From Escherichia phage vB_EcoM_ESCO45, in sequence record OM386661.1: a stretch of DNA of 64,000 bases; one strand, 5' to 3'. Numbering within the stretch: the first letter of the stretch is position 1; the number at the start of each line of letters is the position of its first letter. Below the pieces are notes generated by a model that saw only the letters and a list, made by a program, of their open reading frames with translations, was not told the DNA's origin and did no database searches. Positions 11 through 56,400 of the stretch are shown here, one piece after another. Made by a program: the position numbers and the translations under genes.

Positions 11-7958
<7,948 letters not shown>

Positions 7959-14511: not shown

Positions 14512-14841
14512 TTAGTCTGCCAACCTTAAATTGAAATTAACACCAAATTTTTCACACACTCCCAACATATACTCAAGGGAAACATTCCCAGTGAGGTGGA
14601 TTATGTTGGATACACGAGCCTGAGAGATACCACAAATTTTAGCAACTTGCTCTTGAGAAAGACCTCTGGATTTAATCTCTCTCTTAAAACGATGTGCAAC
14701 GAAATCTCTCATTTCGTCTACATCCATTGGACAAATATAACTCTCCATTTCAGCCTCTCTATCAGCCTCCCAATCATCTTGTGGGGCATAAGGGTCAAAA
14801 ACCTCATTCATCTTTCTTCTTCCGTTTGCGTGAAGTGTCAA
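14512..14841 (-). CDS. HTH (XRE-like) transcriptional regulator
   Basis: 109 aa; C-terminal LSQEQVAKICGISQARVSNI helix-turn-helix signature. Confidence 0.55.
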   Translation of the reverse strand: MTLHANGRRKMNEVFDPYAPQDDWEADREAEMESYICPMDVDEMRDFVAHRFKREIKSRGLSQEQVAKICGISQARVSNIIHLTGNVSLEYMLGVCEKFGVNFNLRLAD

Positions 14842-22540: not shown

Positions 22541-22600
22541 TTTTACTCCCTCTACAATCATTAACCTCATACATTACTGCAAAAAATTATAAAAAGCAAG

Positions 22601-22629
22601 TTGACAATGTACTTGACAAGGTGTTAATC
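22601..22629 (+). promoter_or_regulatory. candidate sigma70-like promoter in divergent control region
   Basis: Tandem TTGACA boxes (22601, 22614); TTGACA-N17-TTAATC; weak -10. Confidence 0.3.
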
Positions 22630-22797
22630 TTTGCGAAGTGGGTTTTTACTTAAAAGGTTACTTAACAGTTTAACTATACAGATACTTTAAAACTCTTAAA
22701 AGATTATTTAATAGCTTTTAAAAAGCTTTAAAGTATAACGTATAGAATACGTTAAGATAAAAGATTAAAACTTAATAGTTACTTAAAAGAGGCTTAC

Positions 22798-43480: not shown

Positions 43481-43507
43481 AAGGCTGCTTCGGCGGCCTT
43501 TTTTATT
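43481..43507 (+). terminator. rho-independent terminator after rIIB-like gene
   Basis: AAGGCTGC-ttcg-GCGGCCTT followed by TTTTTATTT. Confidence 0.55.
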
Positions 43508-43534
43508 TGTATTTTGTGCAGAGTGCTGTATAAT
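43506..43534 (+). promoter_or_regulatory. sigma70-like promoter upstream of SLT gene
   Basis: perfect -10 TATAAT at 43529-43534 with TG two nt upstream; weak -35 TTTGTA. Confidence 0.4.
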
Positions 43535-45296: not shown

Positions 45297-45312
45297 AATT
45301 CAAGGAGTGCTA

Positions 45313-46197
45313 ATGAAACCAATGTTTAAGTATCTTGGTGGTAAAACAAGAATACTGAAAGAATATGAGCGTTTAGGTGTCTTTCCAGACAACTGTGAAA
45401 ACTTCTATGACCTGTTTTCAGGTGGTGGCTCAGTAGCTATCTGGGCTTATGATAAGTACCCAGAGGCAAAAATATTTATTAATGAAATAAACAAACATAT
45501 CATAGAACTTTACATAACCTTCAGGGATGATTACGACAAATTCATGGAAGAATTTCGACACTTGGCAAAAAGGTACTTAGCATTACCTATGCAGGAAGAG
45601 TACACTATGAAGGGGCAACGCCATAACCGATTACGTTATAAGATGTACTACAGTGTAAGAGATGAGCTTCTCACTCTTGGTGAATCTGGTGTCTATGACT
45701 ACAGATACTATGCCAGACAGTTTTTCCTTCAGAAACTAAGTTTTGGTGGTGTATGGCAGACAACTAAAGAGATGAAAGGGCACTATGCAACACCTTGCGG
45801 CTATTTGATGGAAGAAGAAGTTTTCTTTACAAAGACTGAAGAAGCACTAAAGGAGTTCTATAACTTCATCACTGATGAGAGGGTTGTCCTTAGCAGTAAT
45901 TCTTATGATATGGTTGATATAAAGCATGGAGAAGGGACAGTCATTTACTGTGACCCACCATATATAAACACCAACCAGAAATATGGCGCAAAGTTTGACG
46001 TTTCAATGTCTGTGAAATTGTGCAAAGACATATCTGATTGGGGGGAGTTAGGCTCTAAGGTGCTGATGTCAAACTCTCAGTGGGACGGATGGTCAAACCT
46101 AATTCCTGAAAATTTTCACTTGACAGAGGTTAATCATTCATACACAATACACGCACAGGGAAGCAAAGGTATTAACGAAGTAATTATCCACAACTAA
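45313..46197 (+). CDS. dam: DNA N6-adenine methyltransferase (Dam-like)
   Basis: KYLGGK motif near N-terminus, FSGGGSV SAM-binding loop, catalytic DPPY; start at ATG 45313 with RBS AAGGAG (track start 45307 is GTG). Confidence 0.75.
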   Translation: MKPMFKYLGGKTRILKEYERLGVFPDNCENFYDLFSGGGSVAIWAYDKYPEAKIFINEINKHIIELYITFRDDYDKFMEEFRHLAKRYLALPMQEEYTMKGQRHNRLRYKMYYSVRDELLTLGESGVYDYRYYARQFFLQKLSFGGVWQTTKEMKGHYATPCGYLMEEEVFFTKTEEALKEFYNFITDERVVLSSNSYDMVDIKHGEGTVIYCDPPYINTNQKYGAKFDVSMSVKLCKDISDWGELGSKVLMSNSQWDGWSNLIPENFHLTEVNHSYTIHAQGSKGINEVIIHN

Positions 46198-46208
46198 GGT
46201 ATAAAGTT

Positions 46209-47021
46209 ATGTCAAGTAGCATCAATGTAGCACTGAACGGTAAAGTTGTTAAAATGCACACTAAGATTATCAGTGTTGAGGATTTCCTTAACGAGAGACG
46301 CTACAAAGAAAATCCTCGTCAGCGAAATACACTGAAACGTCTGAAGAGTAAGCACCTCAATGGTGCTGTATCACCAGACCAAACAGTAGTCCATGTAGCT
46401 AAGTTTGGCAGTTCACTGTTTATTATTGATGGACACTCACGCCGAGAGGCATGGAAGGTAGGCAACCTGACACGACCAGAGAACCTGATTGCAGTTATAT
46501 ACCATGTGAACTCTATATTGGATGTCACAGACTTGTATACCCATTTTGACTCTGAATTAGCAAGAGAGAAGCCTTCTGAAGTTTATTACGGGAATATGAA
46601 GATGATTTCTTTCAATCCAGAATCAGAACTGATGAAAGCATCTTGGGCTACTGCCATTAAGTATGTTGCTGCATACTATGGTGTGCAACAGGTATCTAAC
46701 ACCGAAACAGTTAAATACCTTAATGATTTTAAGAATGAGTTGGAACAAATTGATTCTCTTGAAGTACAGCTTAAAGGTGTAGTAAACGCAAAACGCAAAT
46801 ACTCTTCTGGTATCCGTGCAGCAATGCTAATAACATTACGCCTATATGGTGATGCTGCATTCTCCTTTTGGGAGGATTATAACGATTACTGTGAAGGTAT
46901 GTCTAACAAATATGTTACAGAGTTATACCAACTAGCATTACAAGCTGGTCGCGGAGCACAGGCTGATAAGCTGTTGATGAATCAAGCAATTTCACTTGTC
47001 AACTATTACAGTCAAGAGTAA
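46209..47021 (+). CDS. ParB-like nuclease domain protein
   Basis: 270 aa; FIIDGHSRREAW resembles ParB/DUF262 DGxxR catalytic loop; directly downstream of Dam gene. Confidence 0.4.
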   Translation: MSSSINVALNGKVVKMHTKIISVEDFLNERRYKENPRQRNTLKRLKSKHLNGAVSPDQTVVHVAKFGSSLFIIDGHSRREAWKVGNLTRPENLIAVIYHVNSILDVTDLYTHFDSELAREKPSEVYYGNMKMISFNPESELMKASWATAIKYVAAYYGVQQVSNTETVKYLNDFKNELEQIDSLEVQLKGVVNAKRKYSSGIRAAMLITLRLYGDAAFSFWEDYNDYCEGMSNKYVTELYQLALQAGRGAQADKLLMNQAISLVNYYSQE

Positions 47022-48387: not shown

Positions 48388-48588
48388 ATGGCTGACTTCT
48401 GCAAAGACTGTTCTATCGAAATGTTTGGACGTGATACAGGTGACTTAAAAGGTCTTATCACTGAAGATGACTTTAAAGCTGGTTATGCAATGCCAGTAAT
48501 CTGTGAAGGCTGTGGGTGCATCTGGGTAGACCACGAAGGGCAACGTGTAAAGCCTTCAGAAGATAAAGAATCTTGGGAGAGGTGTTAA
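48388..48588 (+). CDS. small zinc-ribbon protein
   Basis: 66 aa; CKDC ... CEGCGC pairs. Confidence 0.35.
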   Translation: MADFCKDCSIEMFGRDTGDLKGLITEDDFKAGYAMPVICEGCGCIWVDHEGQRVKPSEDKESWERC

Positions 48589-49374
48589 ATGGGTATTGTA
48601 AAAATCATCAATGGTGATATCTTTGACGCCTTTGATAAAGGTAAGTTTGACATCATTGGTCACGGTTGCAACTGTATGAATTTAATGGGTGCAGGTATCG
48701 CTGACAAGATTTCTAAACTTTACCCAAAAGCATATGAGACCGATACAGAAGTTTACATCTATGCAGGTGGTACAGGTCACAAACCCTGTGAAAATTTACT
48801 GGGTAATTTCTCTGTAGCACGTTTAAAACAAGGTCGTATAGCTAACCTTTACACTCAGCTTAAGACTGGTAAAGACGCCCGATACAGTGCTTTAGAGTCA
48901 TCTTTGAAGCAACTTAACAGATACTGTGAAGTTAACCAGTTGAAGAAAGTTGGTTTACCTATGATTGGTGCAGGTATCGGTGGACTTGACCCTCAAGCTG
49001 TCACAGTTATCATCAATCAGGTTATGAAGAGCGTAGATGTTTATCTGTATGTCTACGAGACAGAGATGTGCAACAAGTTACACTCAGGTTGGAAAAACTA
49101 CTGTGAACCAGAATACTTTGCAGGTGTAGTTGTGTCCACAGATAATGCAGTTACCCTCTTCAGACGAAGAAAAGGTAAGATACATCAAAGTAACCCTCCG
49201 GTTGAAAAGATGTCTCTAAGTAACGCTCTAGTTACCCACCTGTCGAAGAGCAATCACAGAATTGCTGTGACATTTGGTAGTGATGCCGATGCTTACATTT
49301 ATGCAAGAACTGATGAGGATATCAAGACGGTTTTCTCTTCACCAGAAGTTACCTTCTTAGACGCAAAGAGCTAA
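48589..49374 (+). CDS. macro-domain-like (ADP-ribose binding/processing) protein
   Basis: 261 aa; N-terminal INGDIFDA...DIIGHGCNCMNLMGAGIADKI resembles macro-domain Gly-rich ADP-ribose binding loop; C-terminal ~100 aa extension of unknown function. Confidence 0.45.
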   Translation: MGIVKIINGDIFDAFDKGKFDIIGHGCNCMNLMGAGIADKISKLYPKAYETDTEVYIYAGGTGHKPCENLLGNFSVARLKQGRIANLYTQLKTGKDARYSALESSLKQLNRYCEVNQLKKVGLPMIGAGIGGLDPQAVTVIINQVMKSVDVYLYVYETEMCNKLHSGWKNYCEPEYFAGVVVSTDNAVTLFRRRKGKIHQSNPPVEKMSLSNALVTHLSKSNHRIAVTFGSDADAYIYARTDEDIKTVFSSPEVTFLDAKS

Positions 49375-49443
49375 GAAACTCTGTAGAATATTCACAATAG
49401 ACTAAGCCTTTCTTATCTGGTAAATTTTTCAGGTAAGGGGGCT

Positions 49444-49625
49444 TTTTCATTTCAGAATTGTGCAGGCATATTTCTATAGAGAAACCTGTAGAGAAAATCT
49501 TGAACTCCAAAGAGAAAATTCATTTTCAAACTGTGCAGGTAATCTCCAAAGAGCTTTTTCATTTTCAAAACGTGCAGAGAAAAATCAGGTCGGGCAAGAA
49601 AAATCATTTTAGAATTGTGCAGGTA
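49444..49625. repeat. iteron-like direct repeat array (4 copies of ~20-bp unit TTCATTTTCARAAYTGTGCAGG)
   Basis: Copies at ~49446, 49519, 49558, 49604; copies 2 and 3 are parts of a 39-bp tandem duplication beginning CTCCAAAGAG (49505-49543 / 49544-49582). Confidence 0.6.
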
Positions 49626-49801
49626 GGCGGGTCTAGGCGGGGATGTCGCCATTTCTCACAATGCTACCACATCCAAAAAGAAAAGTCAACAGAAAAATTT
49701 GTAGCGGATTGAAAAATAATTCTTGACTATAGTTCTGTTTTGTGGTATTCGCGTGCGCCCGTTTCATTACATTTTTGCCAAAAATATTTTTAAAATTTTT
49801 A

Positions 49802-49883: not shown

Positions 49884-50090
49884 ATGCTATACGGTCGTGA
49901 ATTGATGGTCACAACTAACGTCAACACAAATGCAAAACGTTTTTACATGCAAATTTGCGGCGCATGGTCTAGAATATCAGAATCTGACTATTGCAATTAT
50001 GTAGAAACGGCTATAGACTCTAATTGCTACCTTACAAGAAACACAAGAAAGCACATAAGACAGACAGCAGTTTACTACTACGAAATCTAA
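49884..50090 (+). CDS. hypothetical small protein
   Basis: 68 aa; preceded by promoter 49802-49830 and conserved RBS context CTAGGAGA. Confidence 0.4.
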   Translation: MLYGRELMVTTNVNTNAKRFYMQICGAWSRISESDYCNYVETAIDSNCYLTRNTRKHIRQTAVYYYEI

Positions 50091-51176: not shown

Positions 51177-51509
51177 ATGTTAATGATGGGAATCACTGCA
51201 ATCATCGCCATTATAGCACTTTATAAGGCTTACAGCGCCTATAATTTAGCAGATAAGGCAATTACACAACAGGTTAATAATAGCCTTGTAGAAAGCTTTC
51301 TGGAGCGTTTAAGCGATGAGCAAATAAAGAGGCTAGAGATGAGTTTCAGATTTAAAGCGAAAACTTATCAGATTAGTGACATTTTCAAAGATGACTATCA
51401 ACTGATTGATGATTATAACTCTCTACTAAATGCTTTGAATATCAGTGACTTAAAAGACTACTACGCTGTAATTGCTCAAGAAATGAGCAAACGAAAAAAT
51501 TTCTCTTGA
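51177..51509 (+). CDS. hypothetical membrane-anchored protein
   Basis: 110 aa; N-terminal TM MLMMGITAIIAIIALY. Confidence 0.4.
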   Translation: MLMMGITAIIAIIALYKAYSAYNLADKAITQQVNNSLVESFLERLSDEQIKRLEMSFRFKAKTYQISDIFKDDYQLIDDYNSLLNALNISDLKDYYAVIAQEMSKRKNFS

Positions 51510-51598
51510 ATTTGGTTTTTAAAACAAGTAAATTACTAATCAACGGGGAGGGCATGACCTCCCCACTAAATAAAACCCTTAAACTAGGAGATTCAAAA
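51510..51598 (+). promoter_or_regulatory. repeated promoter/stem-loop/RBS cassette, family B copy 1
   Basis: TTGAAT-N17-TAAATT then CAACGGGGAGGGCATGACCTCCCCACTAAATAAAACCCTTAAACTAGGAGATTCAAAAATG; hairpin GGGGAGG/CCTCCCC. Confidence 0.55.
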
Positions 51599-51871
51599 AT
51601 GTATACTACTAACAACGGGCGAACCCTAAATGTAACCCTACGCCACTATGTGAACGGCATAATGCACTTTGAGGATTTACAAGCGGAACAACATATTCTG
51701 GATTGGCAAGTAGCAGGACTGCAAAAAACTACTACCGGATATGGGAAAAAGATACCAACGAGCTGGAAAGTACACTATAAAGGACGTTTGCGCAGAATTT
51801 ATCAGGATGTATATAGCAATAGCGCATCAAGTTACATCATGGTGAAAGGTAAAAAGCTGCATTTAGTGTAA
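51599..51871 (+). CDS. hypothetical small protein
   Basis: Start moved to ATG 51599 after family-B cassette RBS; track ORF 51506 begins with TTG inside the repeat. Confidence 0.4.
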   Translation: MYTTNNGRTLNVTLRHYVNGIMHFEDLQAEQHILDWQVAGLQKTTTGYGKKIPTSWKVHYKGRLRRIYQDVYSNSASSYIMVKGKKLHLV

Positions 51872-51957: not shown

Positions 51958-52362
51958 ATGGCTATTAATAACCGTGAGTTATTAATCTTAAAAGCACGTT
52001 TGACCATTAATCGAATTAATGTGATGACATCAGCAGCACCAGATGAAACCTTATATAATATTATTGGGAAGATTCAAAGTGCTATCTTAGACGTTGAAAG
52101 CGTAAAAACCTCACTGATTGACGTTGCAGCGGGTATCACGCTAGACGGCGCACAATATGAAATGGCTGACATGTTGGGCAAATCTAAGGTAATGAATAAA
52201 GAACTTGATTTAAAAATATTCAGATTCGCCGTGAAAGTATGGTTATCCATCGAGTATGATGCCAATTATGCAATCGCTGATTTTTTCGCCACTTGGTTAC
52301 AACGTAATTTAACAAGTCATGTTTTTCGTGATGTATGTGATGCAATTTATGCAGAACTATAA
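51958..52362 (+). CDS. hypothetical small protein
   Basis: 134 aa; preceded by family-A cassette. Confidence 0.45.
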   Translation: MAINNRELLILKARLTINRINVMTSAAPDETLYNIIGKIQSAILDVESVKTSLIDVAAGITLDGAQYEMADMLGKSKVMNKELDLKIFRFAVKVWLSIEYDANYAIADFFATWLQRNLTSHVFRDVCDAIYAEL

Positions 52363-52368
52363 AAAAAT

Positions 52369-52464
52369 TTGTTGACACCGGTTTTTAAAACAAGTAAATT
52401 ACTAATCAACGGGGAGGGCATGACCTCCCCACTAAATAAAACCCTTAAACTAGGAGATTCAAAA
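52369..52464 (+). promoter_or_regulatory. family B cassette copy 2
   Basis: TTGACA-N17-TAAATT + GGGGAGGGCATGACCTCCCC hairpin + RBS. Confidence 0.55.
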
Positions 52465-52662
52465 ATGGCTATTATTAACGGTTTAAACATTGAGACTACT
52501 CACATCAAAGACATTAAAGCCGGTGATATAGTCCTTTCCCACGGCGTAGAAAAAACCGTCACCGAAAAAGATATCAAGGAGGATTCATTCATGGGTCGGA
52601 CCCTCTTTGGTGATTCCTATTGCTTAGGCTATCTTGCTGTTTTAAAAGTTGTAAAAAAATAA
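52465..52662 (+). CDS. hypothetical small protein
   Basis: 65 aa from ATG 52465 after family-B cassette; track start 52369 is TTG inside the repeat. Confidence 0.35.
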   Translation: MAIINGLNIETTHIKDIKAGDIVLSHGVEKTVTEKDIKEDSFMGRTLFGDSYCLGYLAVLKVVKK

Positions 52663-54695: not shown

Positions 54696-56400
54696 TTCGA
54701 TAGAGTCTATCCCATAGGTGCTTTTTTACGTCTATCAAATCCTTATGCAATCCCTTTCCCTCACCTTTCTAGAATCTCCCCACTGATTCAATAGAGTTTA
54801 TCTCATACCTTAAAAAGCAATAACTCTATAGCTTACCCTATAGCCTTTTATCAAATCAACTTAAATATAAGCCCATAACCCGAGAGGGAAGGGCAACCCT
54901 TTAAACGCCCTATAACGCCCTATAACAGCATTATCAATATAACTTAAGGGATTGCATTACCTCACCTTAAAAAGCACTTTATAAGGCTTTACAGAGCCTT
55001 AAAAGAATCTTTTAAGGGTATAAGCTTATAGGCTGACTAGTATCATGTGAACTGCTAAAAAGTGCTTGATAGTGTCTTAAAAGTATGTTATAGGTGCTAT
55101 AAAGTTACTCAAAAGCTACTCAAAAGTTACTCAAAAGTTACGTAAATGCTAGCCCCCTTAACATTTTCTTAACAATTTCTTAACAAATCCTACATAGTTA
55201 TACTTTCAAGACACTTGTTAACAACTTGTTAGACCCTTGTTAAATCTCTGTTAAGACCACGTAAAAGCTATGTAAAAGCCTTTGGCATAGCCTTAAAAGC
55301 ACTGTAAAGCACTATAAAGAGCTATTCATACATTTGAGGGGCAAATACTAGGGAGAGACTAAAAAGAGCCTATACAGAGCTATAGAGAGCTTTTAAAAGG
55401 TATGTTTAAGGTATCACTAAGAAAGGAAAGGGAACGATAAGAAAAGAGTAGTGACCATGTTAATAGCTTGTTAAAAAGGTTAAATACTTGTTAGGAACTT
55501 GTTAATTATCTAATTGGTATTGTTACCAATCCCTAACAAAATAACCCTTTAAAATTAACTTGTTAGCTCTTGTTAATCATCTGTTAAACCTCTGTAAAGC
55601 CTATGTATCACTTGTTAGAGACTTGTTACCCTCTTGTTAAAACTATTAAGAATCTGTTAAGACCTTTGGAGAGATGTTAAGAGCTTGAGAGAGTTGTTAA
55701 GAGTTTGTTAATGATATTTTAAAATTTTGCAAAGGGGATGTTACAGAGCTGTTAAGGGCTACCAAACAGATATACATCCTAATCAGATATTTTTCAGTTC
55801 CTTCAAAGACCCTAAAAAATGACTTGACAGTCCTATTTTATAAAAAAATTAAAATTCTGAATAATTACCTATACAGTCTTTCTAAAATACAGGCATAAAC
55901 AGGCTTATAAGATACCTTGTTAGTACCGTGTTAGGCCTTGTGAGATAAGGTCTGTAAAGATATTCCTGTTAAGTTTGTTAAAACAGTCTATATAGAGGCT
56001 TAGTAGTGCCTAGTGAACACCTATAGAGAGTGTCATAGCTAACATAGAGATTAAGAGGTGTATAGGAGCTTCTAAGAGGGTATAGAGGGATGGTTAAGGT
56101 GATTGTATAGGTTATTAAGAAGGCTTGTTAGAAGAGTGTTTAGAGGGCTTGTTAGAGGGCTTGTTAGAAGGGTTATACAGAGGGGCTACTAAGACCACTA
56201 GATAGTTACTAAGATACTATATAATACTATATAACTATATAGAGAGTAAGATTAAGAAGGTTGTTAAGAAGGATAGATATTTTATTCACATATGATGGTG
56301 ACCCAGAGGTTGGGACAACCGATAAAATTTTATAAAAATTATAAATTTCGTAAATTTTACTCAATAAAAAGCCCCCAATTAAGGAGGCTCTTAAGATATT
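54643..56400. repeat. 1.75-kb ORF-free repeat-dense region (TTGTTA-core degenerate repeats and short tandem repeats)
   Basis: No ORF of 60 aa or more in any frame; many CTTGTTA(A/G), TGTTAAG copies (55200-55700); tandem CTCAAAAGYTAC x3 (~55096-55135), GGGCTTGTTAGA x3 (~56108-56160), CGCCCTATAA x2 (54907-54925), ACTATATA x3 (~56205-56235). Confidence 0.7.

Follow-up and report, generated by a model that had tools for sequence, protein, structure and literature searches.

Upstream arrays of protein sites are known from the promoter rrnB P1, which has Fis sites, and from the early and late promoters of phage phi29, where p4 and p6 form complexes. Direct repeats called iterons are found at lambda ori, with its four O-protein sites, and at the plasmid oriV of RK2, P1, F, and R6K; iterons are typically spaced by ∼22 bp, oriV of RK2 combines them with AT-rich and GC-rich parts, and the origins of T7 and T4 are linked to promoters. 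A further tandem array is the centromere sopC of F with its twelve 43-bp units. For phage T5 it has been proposed that the untranslated repeat regions of the terminal repeat include an injection-stop signal (Davison, bioRxiv 10.1101/866236). Here we describe a repeat array in Escherichia phage vB_EcoM_ESCO45 (OM386661.1), of which one strand of 64,000 nucleotides was analyzed (the window; positions are counted from its first letter). Four copies of a bipartite motif lie between a macro-domain gene and two promoters, P1 and P2, which precede a cluster of small early genes. The array is a cis element at the level of the DNA with three to five units in one orientation, it is found throughout the subfamily Ounavirinae, and its sequence, the spacing of its copies and its distance to P1 are strongly constrained. 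Tentatively, we suggest that the repeats are tandem sites for one very conserved DNA-binding protein and that, being coupled to P1 by distance, they serve the terminal early-gene cluster as an upstream module that regulates or insulates it.

As far as we found, the array has not been described before in the literature on these phages. The genome paper of Felix O1 does not mention it, our literature search yielded no transcriptome or origin study of Felix O1-type phages, and in public records the region is either not annotated or mis-annotated as small hypothetical genes. Felix O1-type phages are classic typing phages and are widely used in biocontrol and therapy. Knowledge of the binding partner would reveal either the mode of control of the terminal early-gene cluster or the site at which replication begins, and phage engineers would learn which non-coding DNA is to be left intact.

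The motif reads TCATTTT-N6-GTGCA(G), and its four copies (R1–R4), all on the + strand and in the same orientation, span the positions 49447–49623. They match the 20-mer consensus TCATTTTCAAAWTGTGCAGG with 1–3 mismatches and are the sole four matches in the 64 kb when up to 3 mismatches are allowed; 100 dinucleotide shuffles gave 0 matches. From start to start the copies are 73, 39, and 45 bp apart, and R2 and R3 lie within a 39-bp tandem duplication (49505–49543 and 49544–49582) that is 82% identical over 34 nt. Thus, the initial annotation, which from the letters alone had noted four ∼20-bp copies spaced by 39–73 bp and two of them within a 39-bp tandem duplication, located every copy correctly. 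It had also placed the array downstream of the macro-domain gene, and indeed the array follows the terminator of this gene in a gene-free gap of 509 bp, which houses the terminator, the array, P1, and P2. The repeat unit is longer than 20 bp and measures ∼37–45 bp. It consists of an upstream block (CTCCAAAGAG/GGTCnGGCAAG or GTCGGGCAAG), five A/T, TCATTTT, N6, and GTGCA(G/T)(G/A)G; the unit of the window closest to the units of Erwinia phages is R4. As the 73 bp between R1 and R2 correspond to about two units, the spacer between them is probably the relic of one further unit.

The information content of the motif is high in the two blocks TCATTTT and GTGCA and low in the 6-nt gap, the length of which is fixed. 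Such a bipartite motif with a gap of fixed length is typical of protein–DNA sites. A position weight matrix (PWM) was built from 67 distinct copies and scanned over the full 87-kb genome of phage Bas63, with a maximum of 11.6 bits in 20 shuffles. The scan returned the four array copies with 36–45 bits, one site of 19.5 bits after rIIB, and a match of 13–17 bits on the start of nrdA. Since the matches are confined to the array and a weak site at another promoter, the motif is a local element and not a general promoter motif.

By its sequence the window is assigned to Felixounavirus, that is to the Felix O1-type phages within the Ounavirinae. It is collinear with phage Bas63 (JohannRWettstein), and the 2.1 kb around the array match 225 phage records, mostly with 90–95% identity and nearly all of them from Felixounavirus, the best matches being the Escherichia phages ESCO56, ESCO50, and ESCO49. 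The intergenic region or the array alone has matches in 292–304 phage records. The carriers are Felixounavirus, Mooglevirus, and Kolesnikvirus (according to the taxonomy lines of examples), a 90,743-bp contig, and a divergent 88-kb phage, L019; all of these lineages have the array behind the macro-domain gene. In phiEa104 and in L019 the macro domain is only 43% and 37% identical to that of the window, yet both have kept the core TCATTTT-N6-GTGCA without change, and the stretch 49519–49621 still aligns with Kolesnikvirus phages at 73%. The initial annotation had named conservation in close relatives as a check, with absence of the array counting against its proposal. The array is present throughout the Ounavirinae, its spacing is fixed per genus (73/39/45 bp in Felixounavirus, 75/41/45 bp in Mooglevirus and in the 90,743-bp contig, 37/37/39 bp in Kolesnikvirus), and the copy number is 3–4 in the Felixounavirus lineages compared. 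The lineage with three copies (L009, L032, ECML-1, and phiWec177) lacks R2 and has a spacing of 75/45 bp; one metagenomic relative has 75/39 bp.

In a motif-pair scan of IMG/VR 31 loci were found, 30 of which are on contigs of 51–94 kb with Ounavirinae-type arrays, and the metagenome scan returned only arrays of known Ounavirinae types and unrelated tandem repeats, the latter accounting for most of the 48 matches. The motif-pair scan of 185,579 species genomes of bacteria and archaea (one genome each) gave 44 matches, none of them in Enterobacterales and all of them unrelated repeats, and BLAST against 5,426 complete E. coli genomes and 72,556 plasmids gave no meaningful match. As there are no relatives in host genomes or plasmids, the element belongs to the Ounavirinae phages. 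To measure the constraint on the array, 17 distinct segments of 2 kb from Felixounavirus were aligned and their pairwise diversity (pi) was determined. The motifs of R2–R4 have a pi of 0–0.02 as compared to 0.033/0.049/0.159 at codon positions 2/1/3 of the macro gene, 0.08 for the macro gene, 0.378 for a spacer cassette behind the array, and 0.28–0.57 for the downstream open reading frames (ORFs). Thus, little other DNA of the region is as strongly conserved as the array. A degenerate fifth copy just upstream of P1 is nearly invariant in felixounaviruses as well, the block 49681–49760 having a pi of 0.068.

Directly after the array follows the GC-rich ggcgggtctaggcgggg (49626–49642) and downstream of it P1 and P2, in agreement with the order given in the initial annotation. 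The spacer cassette of this interval (Table 1) is G-rich on the + strand in the window and C-rich on the + strand in Felix O1, Mooglevirus, and Kolesnikvirus. In spite of the two alleles, the distance from the end of R4 to the −35 element of P1 is identical in 20 of 20 Felixounavirus loci (script value 103, equal to 101 nt from GTGCA to TTGACT), and a single length variant of the cassette interval was seen, in which 10 bp are missing. That the sequence of the cassette has been replaced while its length was kept points to a distance constraint between array and promoter. The corresponding script values are 99 for Mooglevirus and 97 for the 90,743-bp contig.

Some observations on the cassette and on the motif stand apart. 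L098 carries the G-rich cassette allele (GGTAGGGGGGTGGAGGTGGGGAGG). With both alleles one strand has runs of G, an unusual feature for a genome of 39% GC, and a G-quadruplex is a possibility. At the end of the contig L015 the C-rich cassette runs into a Nextera adapter (CTGTCTCTTATACACATCT), an artefact, and the contig L021, which switches to GC-rich, bacterial-looking DNA after copy 3, is probably chimeric. An unrelated 10-kb phage contig (L011, same contig as L117) has two 50-bp tandem units with TCATTTTAACATAGTGCAG at 6254–6321, preceded by GGCAA...AAAAA. A promoter and the genes for terminase and portal follow directly downstream of these units, and the contig has no proteins in common with felixounaviruses. 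This match is probably due to chance; a host-factor site common to both would be the alternative.

Table 1. Positions in the window of the repeat units, of the elements flanking them and of the one further motif-like site
Feature	Positions	Strand	Remarks
Macro-domain gene	48589–49374	+	Carries a Macro domain; stop codon 49372–49374
Intrinsic terminator hairpin of the macro-domain gene	49408–49441	+	13-pair stem, then CTTTTTCATT
R1 (TCATTTCAGAATTGTGCAGG)	49447–49466	+	PWM 40.9 bits; pi 0.093, least constrained copy
R1–R2 spacer	49467–49504	+	38 bp; two degenerate half-units CTATAGAGAAAC and CTGTAGAGAAAA; pi 0.084
Unit R2	49505–49543 (motif 49520–49539)	+	CTCCAAAGAG-AAAAT-TCATTTT-CAAACT-GTGCAGG; PWM 38.6 bits; motif pi 0.02
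Unit R3	49544–49588 (motif 49559–49578)	+	CTCCAAAGAG-CTTTT-TCATTTT-CAAAAC-GTGCAGA; PWM 40.7 bits; motif pi 0.0
Variable hexamer in unit R3	49579–49584		GAAAAA or CCCCGC; pi 0.52
Unit R4	49589–49627 (motif 49604–49623)	+	GTCGGGCAAG-AAAAA-TCATTTT-AGAATT-GTGCAGG; motif pi 0.013
GC-rich spacer cassette	49628–49680		53 bp; two unrelated alleles of equal length; pi 0.378
Degenerate fifth copy (AAAAGTCAACAGAAAAATTTGTAG)	49671–49704	+	68% to the reference copy; just upstream of P1
Promoter P1	49723–49751	+	TTGACT (49723–28)-17-TATTCG; extended −10 TGgTATTCG with TG at −15/−14; read from the sequence
Promoter P2	49802–49830	+	TTGACT-17-TAGTAT; upstream of the first small early gene (49884–50090)
Sole other motif-like site in the genome (TTATTTGTATTTTGTGCAGAG)	43503–43523	+	After the rIIB terminator; overlaps −35/spacer of a promoter with −10 TATAAT (43529–43534); 19.5 bits

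In the reading that we tentatively prefer, each copy is a candidate site for one sequence-specific DNA-binding protein. As the core is unchanged even where the neighboring macro protein is only 37–43% identical, a very conserved partner is favored, possibly a protein of the host. When occupied, the array would be a nucleoprotein complex whose distance to P1, downstream of it, is fixed. Its position would be the boundary between the terminated transcription unit that runs from rIIA to the macro gene and the terminal cluster of small early genes, and from there the module might act on P1 and P2, either as an early boost or as a later shut-off. We infer the binding of a protein, the functional coupling to P1, and the direction of the regulatory effect alike. 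What is found at the locus is a sequence-specific site which is repeated at constrained distances from a promoter, as in operator or upstream-site arrays. The initial annotation had likened the arrangement to origin iterons or to a clustered binding-site array for a regulator. Of these two likenesses the binding array gains from the comparison, namely from the bipartite motif, the constraint, the fixed spacing and distance to P1, and from the absence of a coding or RNA signal (see below). The array segment of Bas63 has been described as nonessential in the laboratory, which would agree with a role in regulating accessory early genes.

The array shares with the Fis sites at rrnB P1 and the p4/p6 complexes of phi29 that several sites for one protein, here predicted ones, lie ∼70–300 bp upstream of a strong promoter at constrained distances, and that P1 heads an early transcription unit. 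Unlike in these systems, the motif fits none of the host-factor consensuses to which it was compared, that of DnaA included. In a comparison by eye with consensus sequences, no site for IHF, Fis, CRP, MarA/SoxS/Rob (marbox), ArgR, sigma-54, sigma-E, or sigma-32 and no UP element was consistent across the copies. There are partial resemblances only, namely A/T tracts like those of UP elements and a marbox with the wrong spacing, and DnaA boxes fit only the Kolesnikvirus and L019 versions of the array. With sopC of F the array has in common tandem units of ∼40 bp in one orientation with one (putative) protein site each. In contrast to F, these phages are virulent and partition genes are not conserved among them; at 46209–47021 the window does have a ParB-like gene, an insertion which is absent from Bas63.

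Several observations weigh against a protein-site array that is coupled to P1. The binding protein was not found: among the 40 proteins scanned against Pfam and PHROGs the sole DNA-binding domain is a helix–turn–helix (HTH) of the Cro/C1 type (14512–14841), and as this class usually binds palindromes it is ill-suited to a direct repeat. A classical operator would lie closer to its promoter than the strong copies, which precede P1 by ∼100–280 bp. The nearest promoter on the + strand in Kolesnikvirus is ∼200 bp off, and L019 has a block of TTAACA repeats in place of a P1 homologue, so that coupling to P1 is seen only in Felixounavirus and Mooglevirus. Between genera, the differences in the distance from R4 to P1 (99 and 97 versus 103) are not whole helical turns. 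Finally, the motif-like site after rIIB is kept in Felixounavirus and Mooglevirus with differing middle bases, but it is no more than suggestive, given that its conservation could be accounted for by the terminator and the promoter themselves.

Among the other explanations, a replication origin has to be considered most carefully. The repeats would then be iterons for a phage or host initiator and the DNA would open nearby, aided by transcription from P1 and P2, which we regard as unlikely, if well worth keeping in mind. As in iteron origins, which have several direct repeats of ∼19–22 bp, four to five direct ∼20-bp repeats lie in one orientation in a non-coding gap, and the bipartite, asymmetric site would fit a two-domain binder. 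Strong promoters adjoin the array and so does a GC-rich segment, as in oriV of RK2; in addition, the array is conserved across the whole subfamily, and the literature that we searched describes no origin for these phages. In contrast to iteron origins, however, the array has no adjacent AT-rich unwinding element, as between 49400 and 49900 windows of 40–100 bp have z scores of −1.9 to +1.2 for nearest-neighbor stability, and it has no sequence similarity to any plasmid. The unit spacing of 37–45 bp (3.5–4.3 helical turns) is unlike the ∼22 bp of iterons, and the copy number varies naturally from 3 to 4. Furthermore, no initiator-like family was found among the 40 flanking and replication-module proteins, most of which have no known function and which come from a window of 64 of the ∼87 kb. 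A preprint reports that ∼46–66 kb of Bas63 are uniformly nonessential (PhageMaP), and the array is located inside this segment at 64.13–64.32 kb. Thus, the origin part of the original proposal does not hold up well, although a dispensable or redundant origin would be compatible with these observations. The least stable DNA of the window is found elsewhere, at 22.66–22.79 kb, with a second stretch at 55.8–56.4 kb beside the terminal repeat. The minimum of the cumulative GC skew coincides with 22.66–22.79 kb; the skew follows the direction of transcription and shows nothing at the array. The unstable DNA at 22.66–22.79 kb (z score of ∼+4.4 for 100 bp) is part of the region 22600–22797, from which the DNA polymerase gene (−) and the replication genes (+) diverge; judged by composition only, this region would be preferable to the array as candidate origin. 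An explanation of another kind starts from the position of the array in the genome. Felix O1-type phages have been reported to have short direct terminal repeats (DTRs) of 581–613 bp, as determined by PhageTerm and for UAB_Phi87 by Bal31 digestion and run-off sequencing. Records that were opened at the determined terminus (Pr103Blw, H12, and I14.1) start at ∼55152 of the window, which places the DTR at ∼55152–55733 and hence the array 5.5 kb inside and ∼6–7 kb (∼7%) from the right end. The array could therefore be a boundary element close to the genome end that is analogous to the terminal-repeat regions of T5, binds a host protein, possibly DnaA in some lineages, and marks or holds the DNA at the inner edge of a terminal early-gene block of 5.5–7 kb. 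We consider this improbable, and slightly more so the specific version in which the array would do in the Ounavirinae what the injection-stop region is proposed to do in T5: as a checkpoint near the genome end at which a conserved host protein holds or marks the incoming DNA, it would let the terminal early block of ∼6–7 kb be expressed before the remaining genome is available. As in T5, the array is an untranslated region a few kb from the genome end which is better conserved than the neighboring ORFs (the T5 repeat regions are also more conserved than nearby ORFs; bioRxiv 10.1101/866236) and beyond which a block of small early genes is read toward the end. P1 together with its first transcribed bases (49710–49775; L085 2500–2564) is 82% identical over 66 nt to a segment of T5-like Salmonella phages (L6jm and SESL) in the non-coding terminal-repeat region, where clustered DnaA boxes lie beside it and the pre-early genes A2/A1, also transcribed toward the end, lie downstream; at the sequence level, this likeness suggests that an early-promoter cassette was exchanged between unrelated virulent phages. 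The likeness in position is striking. The homology to T5-like DNA is, however, limited to P1, and the array itself has no counterpart in T5. The Kolesnikvirus copies match the DnaA box TTATNCACA at 8 of 9 positions but those of the window at only 5–6 of 9, even though DnaA of E. coli and of Salmonella use the same box. The paired consensus DnaA boxes in inverted repeats (IRC/IRD) and the palindromes of the T5 regions are absent here, where the copies are direct repeats, and the terminal repeat is only ∼0.6 kb long with the array outside. In addition, two-step DNA entry is not known for Felix O1-type phages, and the DnaA model of T5 is itself a hypothesis.

The remaining explanations place the function of the repeats in transcription or in a product. 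Promoters clustered on the minus strand could have the conserved blocks as their elements, or the array could be transcribed leftward into an antisense or non-coding RNA, to which we assign a small probability. Every unit has a −10-like nAAAAT on the minus strand, and two units of Kolesnikvirus read TTGCCA-17-TAAAAT/GAAAAT there, with 10 of 12 and 9 of 12 matches. Promoter-like sites on the minus strand also point into the array, in the window TTGACT-17-TAGCAT with a TG (49689–49661, carried by the minus strand of the fifth copy) and in phiEa104 at 2303–2274. On the contrary, the −35 matches of the minus strand amount to only 2–4 of 6 in Felixounavirus, Mooglevirus, and L019, and the upstream minus-strand site has TAAGAG as −10 in the Felix O1 allele. 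Moreover, the invariant TGA and TGCAC are not needed by a sigma-70 promoter, and a search of the units for such a promoter gave no match on the + strand and a poor −35 on the minus strand outside Kolesnikvirus. As read from the letters, no terminator works leftward; the 4 G-U pairs in the stem of the macro-gene terminator would make this hairpin much weaker on the minus strand. An array of repeats acting as RNA, either as a mimic of a type III antitoxin with its ToxI-like repeats of 36–45 nt or as a protein sponge, is even less probable. The tandem units of 37–45 nt are constrained over nearly their full length and vary in copy number, the segment has been described as nonessential in the laboratory in Bas63, and the array adjoins a macro-domain gene, a class often tied to counter-defence. 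However, the array is situated downstream of a strong terminator without a conserved promoter ahead, and no similar array was found in Enterobacterales among the species genomes, the E. coli genomes, or the plasmids mentioned above. The z scores of folding, −1.69 for the + strand (to which the terminator contributes most) and −0.35 for the − strand, give no signal of structure, and no Rfam family matches the array even at E values up to 10. For a type III antitoxin the terminator is upstream and not downstream of the repeats and there is no toxin gene, and this candidate was rejected together with the missing Rfam match. Least of all do the repeats encode a small repeat protein from the ORF 49458–49712 (+) or 49652–49452 (−). 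The initial annotation had already taken the former as a mere translation of the repeats, and it does read through them. In the window, Felix O1, and Michonne both strands have ORFs that run across the array, and comparable ORFs have been annotated (bas63_0096/0097, CPT_Michonne131, and ORF31–34 of Felix O1). In phiEa104, however, no ORF covers the copies, in Michonne the copies are read in different frames, and start codons and ORF extents vary between relatives, with no ORF conserved across the genera. None of the spacings of 73, 41, and 37 bp is divisible by three, and the substitutions occur block-wise and not codon-wise. For practical purposes these frames, spacings, and substitutions refute a coding function.

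Several features of the genome end were recorded in addition. The array is not itself the terminal repeat or packaging site, since the DTR maps to another position and has a different motif. In the record of BoyaciRG1 (OR125561.1) an exact end duplication of 1232 bp covers the array, which looks like an assembly overlap. The records of Andreotti and EC106 start beside the array because 4.3 kb of the repeat-rich early region are missing from them. The DTR is packed with units of TTAACA/CTTGTTAA in an 11-bp period, which have opposite orientation at its borders (55158–55189 versus 55691–55722), and is preceded by five 11-bp units of AGTTACTCAAA (55092–55146); both kinds of units may be sites for terminase or end processing. 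In L019 (600–735, minus strand) the array is followed within ∼30 bp by an 11-bp-periodic TTAACA block of the DTR kind, and a DTR-like TTAACA cluster of 600 bp is found ∼7.5 kb further on (L090 6636–7258).

As to the immediate neighborhood, the T-run of the macro-gene terminator (49442–49451) extends into R1, and a terminator has been annotated at this place in the records of the relatives Barry, Tribble, KhF3, and AYO145A. P1 is invariant among relatives; it was not listed by the consensus promoter scan because the last base of its −10 element is G. The series of small genes begins at 49884. No tRNA and no Rfam family was found in the window. Directly upstream of the macro-domain gene a conserved protein of 66 amino acids is encoded (48388–48588; phrog_2210, of unknown function), whose CxxC...CxxCxC spacing suggests a zinc ribbon. 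Between the homologues of bas63_0088 and the spanin genes lie a gene for a Dam-like methyltransferase and the gene with the ParB-like motif DGHSRR, which was recognized by eye (45307–47021). As these two genes have no counterpart in Bas63, they are an accessory insertion; in L019 a methyltransferase gene is also found just upstream of the macro gene. Within the small early genes, ∼100 nt of near-identical DNA precede two genes (51440–51600 and 52345–52465). The ORFs 51506–51871 and 52369–52662 have the common N-terminal sequence ...FKTSKLLINGEGMTSPLNKTLKLGDSKM, and the minus-strand ORFs there have common sequence as well. For Felix O1, repeats of 57 bp and 39 bp have been reported, and the repeats at 51440–51600 and 52345–52465 are probably likewise promoter/terminator cassettes of the hyperplastic early region.

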